Positions 1,411 to 38,174 of a DNA stretch of 64,000 bases are shown in pieces. This DNA comes from Octopus sinensis (taxonomy: Eukaryota). A model generated the notes under the pieces. The model was not told the DNA's origin. It searched no databases and saw only the letters and a list, made by a program, of their open reading frames with translations. The stretch is from NCBI RefSeq assembly GCF_006345805.1, contig NC_042998.1, positions 96,286,001-96,350,000 on the forward strand, read 5' to 3'. The number at the start of each line of letters is the position of its first letter. Within the stretch, counting starts at the first letter, position 1. A program made the position numbers and the translations under genes.

Positions 1411-2368
1411 TAAATTATCTTTCAACCTCGTTAATTATCTTTCAACCACTTGAAGTACTTTTATTTATCAGCAAATTATTTTTTAAAAATATAGTTCTGC
1501 ATACTGTTGATGAAAATCACATTCATTTGTTTCTAGAAATTAATAACAAAGAAGTTGCATCACTGTAGAAAATTTGATAAAATAATCTGATAAAATTTTG
1601 GAATACTTTAAGTGGTTGGAAGAAACTTATCAAGATCTCATTAGCTTTCTTGTATGGATAACGATGATTTCAGACTAGAGAGAAGGGAAGCGTAACAAGA
1701 GTACTGAGTCTCTATGGTGGTTTTCAAAACACTAGATCCTAATCATAGGATAGGGCTATATGGGGGCAGGACCTATATGAAGTGGGTGAATGGGGTTAAT
1801 CTATGTATATATGGGTGATTTATGCCGGCCTACCTCCTTCCCTCCTCCCCTCCGCTCTCTCCCTCCGTTCTCTCCCTCCGTTCTCTTCCTCCGCTCTCTT
1901 TCTCCGCTCTCTCTATCTCCCATTCCCTTCCTCGTGTTTGTGTGTGCGCGATCACAATCTCACACATCCACAAAATTGATCAGAAGTCCGTATAGCAAGG
2001 TCGGACCAATGACTGCTGAGATCTTCCCCGTAAAGAGGAAAAAATAAAATAAAATAAAGAAATTACTGTTCTTTTGAACTTTGAGAAGATTCGTCCGCCC
2101 ATCTTCTCAGGACCCAAAAGCAGTCTTGTTCGCACTGACCCAAATTTCTCACGGACGCCCTGCCCTGAGAGCACAAAATCAGCAATGACAGATTAGCAGA
2201 TGAAAAAAAGGGTTATCTCTACAACTGGGATTGTTGTATCCATAAAATCATCATTGATTGTGTAGAGTGATCCTCTCATTCTCTCTCTCTCTCTCTCTCT
2301 CTCCCCCCCTCTTTCCCTCTCTCTCACTCTCTCCGTCTTTCTCTCTTAATATCTCTCTCTATATATAT

Positions 2369-2616
2369 ACTCTCTTTTACTTGTTTCAGTCATTTGACTA
2401 TGGCCATGCTGAAGCACCGCCTTTAGTCGAGCAAATCGACACACATATGTACGACGGGCTTCTTTCAGTTTTCGTCTATCAAATCCACTCACAAGGCTTT
2501 GGTCGGCCCGAGGCTATAGTAGAAGACACTTGCCCAAGGTGCCACGCAGTGGGACTGAACCCGGAACCATGTGGTTGGTAAGCAAGATACTTACCACACA
2601 GCCACTCCTACGCCTA
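2369..2616 (-). mobile_element. SINE family A, internally deleted
   Basis: Head and tail match 1037-1410, central part missing. Confidence 0.85.
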
Positions 2617-2630
2617 TATATATATATACA

Positions 2631-3337
2631 CTTTATTAATAAAGCTGCAAAGGCATCACAAAAACTGTTACTCAGAATTTCATGTTCCTGTTTGTCGAAT
2701 AGTTTTGGTTGAGAATGGTTACATATAAGGTTATATGTATAAATATACAATTACGTTAATTGATATACATTTGAAATTGGTTATATGAAATTAAAATTAC
2801 GAACAAGAGCACTTAGAGAGCGCAAACTTCCGCCAATGCAGCACCAACGTCCTCTCAACGATTAACCAGAGATGCTTTTTAAAATGAGAATATCTGAAAT
2901 GAACTCGACTGCTCTCACAAACGAGAATACTAAAAATGAACCCGACCGTTCTCAAAAGTTAAGTAAAAAAGCAGGAAAAAATAATCCAGAATCCTTGTCC
3001 TGTACCGAATGGACCCCAAAATCAGTTCGTGCCAGTCACGAGGCCAACCAAACATCCTTGAAAGTTTCATCGAAATCCATCCAGTGGTTCTCGAGATATC
3101 CTGTCCGCGGACAAACAAACAAACTAATAGACAATATAACCGATTATTGAAAAGACCGTTAGCTGAAAGGTACCAATGAAACAAAACCAATTTCAAATGT
3201 GTATTTATCAAGGTAATTGTATATTTATACATGTAACCTTTCTTTTTGTTCCATTCTCAACCAAAACTATCCCACGAACGGGAACGTGAAACTCTGAGTA
3301 ACAGTTTTTGTGATGTCTTTACTGCTTTATTAATAAG
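2631..3337. mobile_element. Inverted pair of ~150 bp repeats (2631-2782 / 3185-3337), each with a degenerate hammerhead motif; probable Penelope-like pseudo-LTR remnants
   Basis: Arms are diverged reverse complements. Right arm 3263-3308 reads AAAACTAT-CCCACGA-ACG GGAA CGT-GAAAC-TCTGA-GTA-ACAGTTTT. Confidence 0.7.
2802..3145. mobile_element. Helentron-associated (HINE/DINE-1-like) non-autonomous element between the inverted arms
   Basis: Starts AACAAGAGCACTTAGAGAGCGCAAACTTCCGCC and contains AAAGTTTCATCGAAATCCATCCAGTGGTTCTCGAGATATC followed by (ACAA)n, the layout of these elements. Confidence 0.55.
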
Positions 3338-3412
3338 TCATATTACTCTACCTCCGGTATTCGAGTACTATTTTTTTCCATCTTGCTTCGCAGTTATATG
3401 CTTACTCTTATA

Positions 3413-3844
3413 CAGGGAGCGATGAGTGAATCGTCGCCATTTTATACTTTTAATTTCGCGCATGCGGCTGGTGTTTTTGACTACACAGTATTGTAGGGTT
3501 AGTTGGGCACTGTCTGTGAGAAAAACCACACAATGACGCAATGCACTCAGAAATTTGGAAACGACATGCTGTACTGCTTGTCATTCGCACCAGAAGCTCC
3601 AATACGAACATGTACCGAGAGTGATAAAAAATCAAACATCCAGTCAACATCAAGGTCTTGCAGGAGATTCCGAAGTCGTCTGGAGGCCGTGGTTGAAGCC
3701 AATAGCGATTTTATTGAATACATTTACTCTTTAGTATTTCAAGATATTTTTATGTAATTTCGGTAAATATATCTGTTAAAATGAAATGTCAGTGTTCTTT
3801 TCATTTTTGCGTAATTTAGACAGCAGTTAATTCACCACACTCTG
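3413..3844 (+). mobile_element. Internal-deletion derivative of the maT-like Tc1/mariner at 61600-62878
   Basis: TA-flanked; CAGGGAGCGATG...CACTCTG termini; three blocks collinear with the long copy. Confidence 0.9.
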
Positions 3845-3852
3845 TATATATA

Positions 3853-4711
3853 TAACTTGTAGGCTCAGGCCAGGTCTAACTTTAATAGCATCACCTGGTG
3901 AAGTCTTTTAGTCATATATGGAGCACCATATATAACTCTAGCAAAGAGTTATTATTGTTGAAGACATATCCGGGTGTAGGAGGTTGGTCTGGGATTTTTT
4001 GAAGAAATTTGTCCAGTGAACTTTTGAATTTTATGGAATCCGTTTCCGTTTTGACGTATTATGGTATGATATTAAAGAGAGCTGGACTGATTGAGGTAAC
4101 GTAGTTGTGACGTAAAGTTATGTGTCCTGAGTTCGATTTTTGTAATGGGCAGATAGCACAGGGGCCAAGTCTTGGGTGGATTTTAAAACTGATGCCAACA
4201 TCATTTGTGCAATATTGATGGAATATTTTCCACATCATACAAATGATGTAGCGTTCCGGGGGACGTTGGAGAGAGTAGAGATTGAGTTTTTTTAGTCGAC
4301 CCCAATAGTCAATGCCTCTCATGCCGTCTGTCTTTCTTGTTATTGACCGCTGGAGTGCTTCCACTTTAATAATGAGTTGCTTCACATGGGAAGACCATAG
4401 TGAGCAACAATATTTAAGGTGGGGTCGGACAAAAGTAGAGTAGTGAAGGATGATGGTGTGGGCATCTCTAGACCTGAAAGTTCTCAGAATCCAAGGGCAC
4501 ATCTTGCGGGCCAACTCAACCTTGTTATTTACGTGGGAACTCCAGCTTAGATTGTTATCAACATTTACTCCAAGGTCTCTGGTATTGTTGGATGACACTA
4601 GGGAGTCATTCGAGGGAAGAGCATATGGATGTTTCAGAGTATCCACTTTTCCAAAGTGGATCAAATTGAACTTATCTTCATTTAGAACTATATTGCTTTT
4701 TCTCCGCCCAT

Positions 4712-4712
<1 letters not shown>
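3853..4712 (-). pseudogene. 5'-truncated CR1-clade LINE (RT C-terminal region plus 3' UTR)
   Basis: ORF 4059-4799 contains RDLGVNVDNNLSW, YSTFVRPHLKYC, RLKKLNLYSLQR; continues past a stop as FKSSLDKFLQKIPDQP. Confidence 0.92.
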
Positions 4713-4713
<1 letters not shown>

Positions 4714-4799
<86 letters not shown>

Positions 4800-5050
4800 A
4801 CACGGATATTATAGAGTAACAGTTATAAGTATTGATGTAATTGTTGAATTAACCGGATATAAGTATATATTTCTTTTATAAGTGACTATGATCTCTAGTA
4901 TTGAACTATCTAATGCAATTCATTTATTTAGTACCACTCCTTGCGCCAGTCCCACATCCTTGGTGTATGTATGTATGTATGTATGTATGTATGTATGTAT
5001 GTATGTATGTATGTATGTATGTATGCATGTATGTATGTACGTACGTATGT
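4714..5050. repeat. (AT)n at 4714-4797 and (TATG)n at 4963-5050
   Basis: Directly visible. Confidence 0.95.
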
Positions 5051-5894
5051 AATATGCGTATATTTGAATGTGTATATGTAAGTTGACTGCATAAAAGTTA
5101 CTTTAAGATTTGCACTGATCGACTAGACATTTCTAAAATGATATTTTAACAAAGAATTTTTCTTGAAATTACATTGAAAGGTACTTAGAACTTTATCTTT
5201 CTGCTAAGGTATAATTTATTTTCCGTGGTTCCATTTCGATCGAGTTATTATTTTCCTTTATGTAATATATCGAAATATTGTATCAATATGTACTTCAAAG
5301 ACTTAACGAATTATCATTGGATTGATCCTGTGGTATAGAGCTATTGATCATTCAATATCTCTTTCACTCTTTGATCTTTTATCTCTACACATCTCGAAGG
5401 TGGTAATATGGAACCAACTTCTTGTGGTGGAGGCAGGGACTGTGAGGATTTTAAAAATGGTTAAACAAATTGCTATGTTTAATAAAAGCAAGATGGTCTC
5501 TGCAACACCATGACGAAAGAAGGTTTGTACGGATAAAACTTTATTTTGTCGAATAAAATACCTTGTGATGTTTGTTGAGGTTCTTTACGTTCTACGTTCA
5601 AAATCCCACCGAAATCAACATTGTCTTTCATCCTTTCGGGGGTCGTCGTACAATTCAAGTACAAGGGTCAACAATATCAACTAATCACCTTCTCTTAAAT
5701 GGCTTTGCGCCTAAGTTAAATACAAATAATGGAGAATAGGGAAAGGAAAAACAAATTTCACGAATGTGTTTTTTGATGGGTGAAGCACTGGTATTTACTA
5801 GTTTGAGAAACTCAGCTTTTAAACTACCCTATCGCGAAATCTATGCTGAATCAAAGCTGACTTAGTGCTGACAGAAACCACCACAACGACGACA

Positions 5895-35169: not shown

Positions 35170-35398
35170 GTGCCTGTGCCACGTAAAAACTGATCGTGGC
35201 CATTGCCAGCCTCACCTGGCACGTAAAAAGCACCCACTACACTCACGGATTGGTTGGCGTTAGGAAGGACATCCAGCTGTAGAAACACTGCCAGATCAGA
35301 CTGGAGCCTGGTGCAGCCTCCTGGCTTCCCAGACCCCAGTCGAACCGTCCAACCCATGCTAGCATGGAAAATGGACGTTAAACGATGATGATGATGAT
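35170..35398 (+). mobile_element. Repeat family D ending in (GAT)n (SINE or RTE-type tail); copies at 37300-37500(+), 38810-39000(-), 41455-41641(+), 44075-44310(-), 47177-47650(-), 52245-52620
   Basis: Conserved GGTTGGCGTTAGGAAGGGCATCCAGC...CCCATGCTAGCATGGAAAA..GGACGTTAAACGATGATG. Confidence 0.85.
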
Positions 35399-36041: not shown

Positions 36042-37671
36042 GTATATACATATACATGTGTGTGTGTGTGTCTGTATATATATATATATATCATCATCAT
36101 CGTTGTGTGTGTGTGCATACATATACTCCTATATAGTGCACATAAGTGTAGAAAATATATGTGTGTACACATTTATATATGTATACATATGTATAGATAT
36201 GTGTGCTTCTACATTCATACTTATCTACAATCATCCATATCAACCTGCTGATCTCTCTCTCTTTTCTCTCTTTCTCTCTCACTCTCCCTTTATCTATTTA
36301 GCTCTTTATCTATTTATCTATCTATATGCTCATTAGTTATCTCATTAGTTATCTTTCTTCATTTGCTCACTGTCTGAAAACACACACACACACACACACA
36401 CAAACAGACAAAACACTATTTTCAATATTACTTTCAACATACATTTAGATCCCCCAACTCTTGAATTGTTTGGCATGAACTAATTACTAGAAAAGCTTCA
36501 ATTATACACCACCACCACTACCACCACTGCTGGTACTACTGCTACTACTACAACTACTACTTTATATTAGTATATCTTTTAAGGCTGAATGTTAATGAAA
36601 AATCAGCTACAGTCAACATGGCTGCCACCACCCAGCAAGTTGATAGTAAAAATAGACTTATAAATTGAGGGAGTTGAACTGATTCAGTTATAGTAAACAC
36701 TGATTATACTCTGCTTTTTCATTGATCTTTCAATGGCATCTCAAATCTAACCTTGCTCTTTGTGACAGATTCCTGTGTTTTTTTTTAAATTTTGTATATT
36801 TTTTCGTAGTTGCTTTCTTATTTTCTTCTGTACATATAGTTAATGCCTTTTGTTTAAATCTAGCAGTTGTGTGGCAGCTAATTCATAAGTTGTTAGTCTT
36901 CATAGGTTTATGTGTGAGTTAATTGTCAACCACACTACACACACATACATATGCACACACAGACACACACGTGTGTATCATCATCATATATATACACATG
37001 TATACACACACACACTTTGAAACATGTATGCATCTCATATGATTCCACCTGCAAGTTAGGTATACATGTACTACATGTCTCTGTTTCAATATTACATACT
37101 ACTTACATACACATAGTACTTGTGCACTTGCATTAAGGGTCATACATACAAACACACACGCACATCAGAATTTTAAGAATCTGCTCAACCACAACCACTT
37201 CTCTCATTCTCCTATCTTAACTCCCACACCATCAAGCATTAGGATGTAGTACCAGACCCTTCCTTGGGTTTATAGACTGGTGAGTTACATGATGATGACT
37301 GCGATATTGCTGGTGTCTTGGAAAAAGTATCGAGTACACACTGTAAAGTGGTTAGGGTTAGGAAGGGCATCCAGCTGTAAAAACCATACCAAAGCAGACA
37401 CTGGAGCCTAATGTAGTTCTTGGACTCAATGAATCCTGTCAAACCATCCAACCAATGCCAGCATGCACAATTGATATTAAATGATGATGATAATGATGAT
37501 TAATGTATGTTTAATAATAGTAGCTTATTTATATGTATGTGCCAGAAATATATTTCAGCTTTAGTCACATCTTCAATATATATATATACATATATATGCA
37601 AATGAATAATAAGAAAATTGAGATATTGAAGTTAATAAGAGTTTATTATCATAAAGAAAAATCGATCATTA

Positions 37672-37754
37672 TCCCTTACAGCTGTTTCAATTACACTTAG
37701 TGAATTTAAATAACTATTAAAATAATATTTTTCAGCTTAATCTCTTCAGAGGGA
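37672..37754 (-). ncRNA. Type-I hammerhead ribozyme motif (minus strand)
   Basis: UCCCU-CUGAAGA-GAUUA...UAAUU-GAAAC-AGCU-GUA-AGGGA: 5 bp stem I, intact core boxes, palindromic stem III, GUA cleavage triplet. Confidence 0.75.
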
Positions 37755-37835
37755 AAAAGAATATATCCTTAGACATATTGTGTGTTAGTTTTTAGGGTTA
37801 AAAAACACACATTATATCCAAGGGTGTATTCTTTC

Positions 37836-37901
37836 TCCCTCTGAAGAGATTAAGCTCAGAAATATGATTTTAATAAGCTTAATTGAAACAGCTGTAAGGG
37901 A
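37836..37901 (+). ncRNA. Type-I hammerhead ribozyme motif (plus strand)
   Basis: UCCCU-CUGAAGA-GAUUAAGCU(loop)AGCUUAAUU-GAAAC-AGCU-GUA-AGGGA; predicted cleavage after 37896; the first pair of stem II is G.U rather than G-C. Confidence 0.8.
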
Positions 37902-38133
37902 TAATGATCGATATTTTTGCTGATATTAAACTCTTATTAACTTCAATATCTCCATTTTCTCATTCATGTGCATGACTATAAACCATCGTTTATATATAAA
38001 CCTATTAATTTATGGATATTAACCTGCCACCAAAAATATTAGGTATTGAACCAGTATTTTTTTGGATGATACCATCCCTTCATGAGGCCAATATAACCTC
38101 TATTTGAATTATATACATACATACATATATATA

Positions 38134-38174
<41 letters not shown>

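Follow-up and report, generated by a model that had tools for sequence, protein, structure and literature searches.

A head-to-head pair of truncated, hammerhead-bearing 3′ ends of a Penelope-like element in Octopus sinensis, probably an old insertion in neutral decay

The window analysed here is the whole stretch of 64,000 nucleotides at positions 96,286,001 to 96,350,000 of contig NC_042998.1 of Octopus sinensis (assembly GCF_006345805.1), and positions given without a locus name refer to it. At 37596–38109 lies an insertion of 514 bp, best read as two 5′-truncated pseudo-LTR (pLTR) ends of a Hydra-clade Penelope-like element (PLE) placed head-to-head. The inverted arm (37596–37793, minus strand) stops near the short 3′ end of the family and has no tail, and the direct arm (37804–38109, plus strand) extends as far as the long one. 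The truncated 5′ ends of the arms are separated by an inversion junction of about 10 filler bases (37794–37803). The ~140-nt tail (37966–38109, plus strand) is confined to the direct arm and ends in a stop-interrupted relic of a Hydra-clade ORF N-terminus (38050–38109, plus strand). On both sides the insertion abuts (TA)n target sequence (37576–37597 and 38110–38172), which hides any target-site duplication, so that none is readable. The extent of the whole insertion follows from the two fixed 3′ ends and the 5′-truncation gradient of the family described below. The initial annotation of this DNA had described a foldback of ~350 bp; the inverted repeat is there, with 37608–37786 pairing with 37804–37964, but the unit extends further since the plus arm runs on to 38109. 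The arms had also been said to differ only by an indel of ~20 nt in stem-loop II, whereas the gap is 17 nt and identity is 88.5% over 157 aligned columns (11.5% diverged), with many substitutions. Both polyA-type hexamers are present: AATAAA (37642–37647, minus strand) is a family trait and a putative polyA signal, while ATTAAA (37925–37930, plus strand) is a private substitution of the family AATAAA. A short dispersed repeat, very abundant in the genome, is present twice to the left of the region (35251–35398 and 37349–37497), and 4059–4808 (minus strand) is presumably a fragment of the C-terminus of a non-LTR retrotransposon reverse transcriptase (RT), as recognised by eye. With respect to gene context, none of 144 repeat-masked frames of at least 52 aa matched Pfam, a search that short exons would escape.

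Each arm carries a type-I hammerhead ribozyme motif with an intact core. The two motifs are divergent and lie where they had originally been placed, and nothing else in the 64-kb window fits a strict type-I descriptor; in both, the core elements CUGANGA, GAAA and UH are joined by three helices. The plus-strand motif (37836–37901) consists of stem I (37836–37840, closing with 37897–37901), CUGAAGA (37841–37847), stem-loop II (37848–37884) and GAAA-CAGCUG-UA, with H17 at 37896, after which cleavage is predicted. The minus-strand motif (37672–37754) has H17 at 37677, with cleavage predicted after 37677. Helix III is a 2-bp stem with a 4-nt loop, and helix II of the family has 12 bp with a ~30-nt loop. 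The stem-loop II of the minus arm is 54 nt long with eroded pairing (5 bp, then mismatches), and that of the plus arm has a private 17-nt deletion leaving a 9-bp stem. The gap is assigned to a deletion in the plus arm because stem-loop II is ~54 nt in the family copies, a length that does not fit the term minimal hammerhead used in the initial annotation. The G10.1–C11.1 pair is absent, being G-U in both window arms and in 20 of 25 aligned rows, and G-C in 3 of 25. An Rfam search, which had been suggested as a check, gave no hammerhead in the 64-kb window at E≤1 or in 37640–37930 at E≤10, with only sub-threshold hairpin matches; the likely reason for missing both motifs is the long stem-loop II. 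Hammerhead-like motifs with a long stem-loop II and a palindromic helix III are also present in Hydra-type elements at L109 1188–1290 and L231 ~7500 (minus strand), and a long stem II may thus be a clade trait in this genome.

The hammerhead stems covary modestly across 25 rows selected for the core. Paired bases occupy 85.5% of stem cells, and 15 double changes were counted against 7.8 in shuffles (0 of 500), both figures being inflated by related rows; the pairs having a double change number 6 against 4.5 in shuffles (109 of 500). An example is the replacement of C-G by U-A in stem I in 4 of the 25 rows. Folded alone, the plus arm has a predicted hammerhead fold of −10.2 kcal/mol against a minimum-energy fold of −15.7, and the minus arm an enforced hammerhead of −4.5 against −10.7. 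Since the minimum folds are not hammerheads, helix III has only 2 bp and its 8-mer is predicted to pair with itself at −11.1 kcal/mol, the modelling points to an activity that would depend on dimers. Dimer cleavage is the subject of Lunse et al. 2017, as cited in the review PMC6765202.

The palindrome is genuine, and not the assembly artefact considered at the outset, because contigs of three of the four public runs compared span its centre. One contig of run X5 covers 37667–37856 and one of run X2 covers 37736–37856, both with 0 differences, and one of run X6 covers 37742–37875 with 3 differences and 2 gaps; in run X1 the longest piece listed has less than 31 nt on one side of the centre. One of the four runs possibly represents the assembly's own sample. 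Over 121–190 nt the centre is identical in runs that carry two other organism labels. None of the public runs listed as containing the sequence is of RNA, an outcome uninformative on expression.

The arms belong to a dispersed family. In the 2.7-Gb assembly, the arm query gave 730 first-look candidates (40 scored) and the tail-segment query 931, while successively more 5′ segments gave 66, 45 and 11, a 5′-truncation gradient. One exact 26-mer spanning helix III is present 29 times in the genome, and only at 37596–38109 does it form a pair. The copies end near positions equivalent to 37965 or 38109, usually followed by TA or CA repeats, and show an insertion preference for (TA)n. The search for copies, orientation and linkage, which the initial annotation had called for genome-wide, revealed a dispersed family colinear with RT and GIY-YIG remnants, and the copies and this linkage bear out the earlier attribution of type-I hammerheads with a palindromic helix III to a PLE. 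On one strand of locus L139, an ORF end is followed by 3′ UTR segments and these by the unit's initial 311 nt. Locus L224 has, also on one strand, RT/thumb remnants and then the unit with an intact hammerhead, the endonuclease (EN) part not being detected there. In L235, which represents a sister subfamily (69–72% identical), the tail arm, an RT remnant and the short inverted arm succeed one another as in the textbook arrangement. At L182, L224 and L225 an RT remnant is physically joined to UTR pieces of the family, and these three remnants share 77–83% DNA identity, against mostly 65–75% with other families. Among the loci examined, none was a full-length copy in which an intact ORF is joined to this pLTR, and the link between ORF and pLTR is assembled from overlapping decayed copies.

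The RT and GIY-YIG remnants of the family gave no match in a Pfam search and were identified by their likeness to intact relatives. A query with one remnant retrieved the intact 960-aa ORFs of a younger family, which carry RWR, DKT, CxCX5C, CxxC and CxH, motifs that agree with those given for the Hydra clade by Craig (2021, PMC8557442). L182 has a C-terminal endonuclease with a CxCX5C linker, and the EN piece of L183 is 43% identical to L237, an intact relative that showed no CCHH on visual inspection. The family's own remnants end before the RWK/DKT positions, and the decayed relative L228 reads DKA, not DKT. From the C-terminal EN, the CxCX5C linker, the (TA)n targets and the motifs of the intact relatives, the family appears, at the sequence level, to be an EN+ PLE of the Hydra clade. 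The younger Hydra-clade family (L237 ~1669–1790 and 2249–5128; L236 5693–8572, minus strand) has asparagine-rich ORFs; its hammerhead lies ~600 nt upstream of the ORF and combines a stem-loop II of ~90 nt with an AGCU loop in helix III, as here.

Likeness to Hydra-clade N-termini was also found in the tail. Of 39 tails, 6 contain the full Hydra N-terminal motif and 8, including that of the window, the short one; among 11,700 shuffles these numbers are 0 and 12, and the 39 antisense sequences have neither. The test is post hoc, the likeness having been spotted by eye and the motif then written from L237 and published N-termini. The relic ORF start (38050–38109) has in-frame TGA stops common to most copies, which may mean that the spreading templates already had a dead or relocated ORF start.

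Several other candidates for the source element were set aside. L067 belongs to a separate family that shares (TA)n targets and has its own inverted repeat; at L067 3315–5118 an unrelated PLE remnant, which has RT, GIY-YIG and an inverted pLTR of its own, adjoins a copy of the present family. The young family in L137 is also separate, 30 loci having shown no real link between it and the unit. This C-terminal-EN PLE family (L137 5400–8260, plus strand) has 1095 candidates, the best copies being 97–99% identical, and the L137 element is inserted in an old copy of the hammerhead family, at a TA run. L131 and L109 represent further separate families sharing (TA)n targets. A Naiad origin, prompted by a note on a 'half core' (Craig 2021), was ruled out by the C-terminal position of the endonuclease, and a hammerhead-like match 1.4 kb upstream of the L228 ORF was set aside as lying beyond a truncation and a TA run. 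A literature search, with Repbase and Dfam outside its reach, found no paper on this family.

The best explanation of the locus, with a probability of about 90%, is an old insertion of a Hydra-clade PLE in which two 5′-truncated, hammerhead-bearing 3′ ends were joined head-to-head, likely in one event, and have since been decaying neutrally. By analogy with published PLE biochemistry, the protein of the element would nick an AT-rich target and reverse transcription would begin at an internal site, the long end giving rise to the tail, and stop after ~300 nt. A further copy begun at the short-end start site would then be joined in inverted orientation by self-priming or template switching. The ribozyme would be selected only in source elements, where its palindromic helix III would let it act as a dimer on tandem precursor RNA, probably aided by protein. 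Such dimerisation is not available within one transcript of the present locus, because the two motifs lie on opposite strands.

Copy statistics are consistent with this decay. An alignment of 59 arms spanning the motif was made without three segmental duplicates and the L235 subfamily, and the main test was made, after removal of CpG columns, on the 28 arms that the hammerhead query had not retrieved. In these 28 arms, rare changes are as frequent in the core and helix III (30 of 488, 6.1%) as in the flanks (167 of 2671, 6.3%; p=1.0), whereas columns with shared variants are absent from the core (0 of 18) and frequent in the flanks (43 of 105; p=0.0003). Thus the conservation of core over flanks, which had been proposed as a test, exists for shared variants and not for rare changes, implying that the core was conserved in the spreading elements and that the inserted copies decay regardless. 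The shared-variant contrast is weaker in all 59 arms (2 of 18 vs 36 of 105, p=0.056), and the core is kept in 16 of the 59. Both cores are intact in one of ten pairs with both arms spanning the motif, that of this window, against 0.7 expected by chance. This neutral decay is a family-level result with which selection at one single locus is compatible.

The initial annotation had instead proposed a self-masking cassette, in which read-through RNA locks the ribozyme in a long duplex and centre-initiated RNA can cleave. Its thermodynamic part holds, as the whole-palindrome transcript is predicted to fold at −185.5 kcal/mol, and at −115.4 when the hammerhead is imposed; the duplex being favoured by ~70 kcal/mol, masking would be expected on read-through. 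This masking is likely a by-product and not a device. Both intact cores, and the presence of the locus centre under three organism labels, might also speak for co-option, but head-to-head pairs are routine in the family, many lack one or both ribozymes, and the core is lost at the neutral rate, so that two intact cores at one locus are no more than chance predicts. The window arms are 11.5% diverged, with no rare changes common to both, and stem II of the minus arm is eroded, as its enforced fold reflects. The proposed central transcription start falls on a truncation junction with 10 filler bases, and both promoter and host gene are hypothetical. Single PLE hammerheads, in the assays described by Cervera and De la Pena (2014, PMC4209133), show no cleavage in vitro. 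A functional cassette is therefore very unlikely. The same low credence attaches to its extended form, a transcribed, domesticated stump whose duplex would shield read-through RNA and feed ADAR or Dicer, and whose centre-initiated RNA would cleave through trans-dimers of a long-stem-II hammerhead peculiar to the Hydra-clade elements of this animal. The copies bear no ADAR imprint, with A>G at 0.0208 and T>C at 0.0188 per site and no strand bias.

The distribution of head-to-head pairs bears on whether the palindrome was formed at insertion or moved as a unit. The survey was based on top matches of several queries and is not a census; it comprised 106 pieces in 66 clusters, with 25 head-to-head junctions in 24 of them, or 22 junctions in 21 of 63 loci after four segmental duplicates of one insertion were merged. 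The arms lie within 20 nt of each other at 14 junctions, 12 of which consist of one short and one long end, and in 6 of these 14 tight pairs an arm is cut within or after the 5′ stem of the ribozyme. No tight tail-to-tail pairs were present among the surveyed loci, and the two convergent arrangements, 745 and 754 nt apart, are between successive units. The recurrence of such pairs, together with three junctions that nearly coincide (~287/313, two of them at one locus), could be taken to indicate a palindromic non-autonomous element, MITE-like or retrozyme-like, moving as one foldback unit. However, the remaining tight junctions are at varying places, never at the 302/312 of the window, most copies are single arms, the ends are asymmetric (short vs tail), the arms are 5′ truncations of a multi-kb element, and none of the 66 clusters has the head-to-tail tandem hammerhead monomers of retrozymes. 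A mobile foldback unit is accordingly highly improbable, and recurrent pairs with differing junctions argue for formation at insertion. Family unit position ~287, which precedes stem I by ~55 nt, is the start of many copies and inverted arms and may be a hot spot of truncation or fold-back, although alignment drop-off may contribute. In three pairs a ribozyme-killing change is common to both arms: a deletion through GAAAC at C7:60683031, a change at position 9 at C5:92660613 and one at position 12 at C11:64086110. Either dead-ribozyme templates were still inserted or the arms were converted, those at C5 being 97.8% identical.

It is hardly credible that the arms were inserted separately into one microsatellite, or that a local inverted duplication arose afterwards. 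In favour, the family targets (TA)n, where unrelated PLEs lie side by side (L067, L137), one wide pair joins two subfamilies (64.8% identical) and the window arms resemble each other no more than they resemble other copies. Against this, the junction has only its filler bases and no TA run, tight pairs are always head-to-head and 12 of 14 are short/long, and some pairs have lesions common to both arms.

A single truncated and inverted insertion thus remains the preferred reading, and the locus is an ordinary dead transposon insertion whose by-products are of modest value to PLE specialists. The copy statistics, which separate selection in active elements from neutral decay, provide a cheap test for claims of functional genomic hammerheads. 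Because several Hydra-clade families have a very long stem-loop II and the window pair is missed by Rfam, such motifs may be undercounted. Co-option of the locus would make it an uncommon example of a ribozyme gated by orientation, but nothing here points there.

The overall architecture is already published (Cervera 2014, Arkhipova 2013, Craig 2021), and the unusually long stem-loop II, missed by Rfam, is a minor novelty. Dual PLE hammerheads on opposite strands, 100–700 bp apart, are described in PMC4209133. The min-hammerheads of Schistosoma and other metazoan PLEs treated there resemble those of the window in a short helix I, a palindromic helix III and a long helix II; in contrast, helix II here is longer still, helix III is 2 bp with a 4-nt loop, and G-U replaces G-C. 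Head-to-head inverted pLTRs with a tail on one are the commonest arrangement according to Arkhipova (2013, PMC3846280), whose Adineta vaga Penelope is also alike in that pLTR and tail hold the first ORF codons. The tail of that element is 31 bp and its target-site duplications are readable, whereas here the stump alone was inserted. An inverted 5′-truncated copy and a tail in PLEs are reported in Craig (2021, PMC8557442). The Hydra-clade EN+ PLEs described there, including Hydra-1_Obim, share the C-terminal GIY-YIG, the CxCX5C linker, the (TA)n targets, a type-I hammerhead near the 3′ end, 5′ truncation and inverted 5′-truncated copies. They differ in the lengths given: stem-loop II is 12–22 nt in the six novel Hydra rows of its File S2 against ~54 nt here, the tail is 30–40 bp against 140 nt, and total length is <3 kb against a 3′ UTR of several kb. 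The present family differs further from that set by its G-U at 10.1–11.1, and identity with any listed family is not claimed. Internal reverse-transcription starts account for the tail in PMC11167929, where the Anolis PLE hammerhead is reported to need protein and to be dispensable for insertion. Animal non-LTR retrozymes, as presented in bioRxiv 10.64898/2026.07.22.740005 (see also PMC7229834), are alike in their type-I hammerhead and PLE ancestry, but they are head-to-tail tandem monomers, whereas the locus in the window is a head-to-head truncation product.
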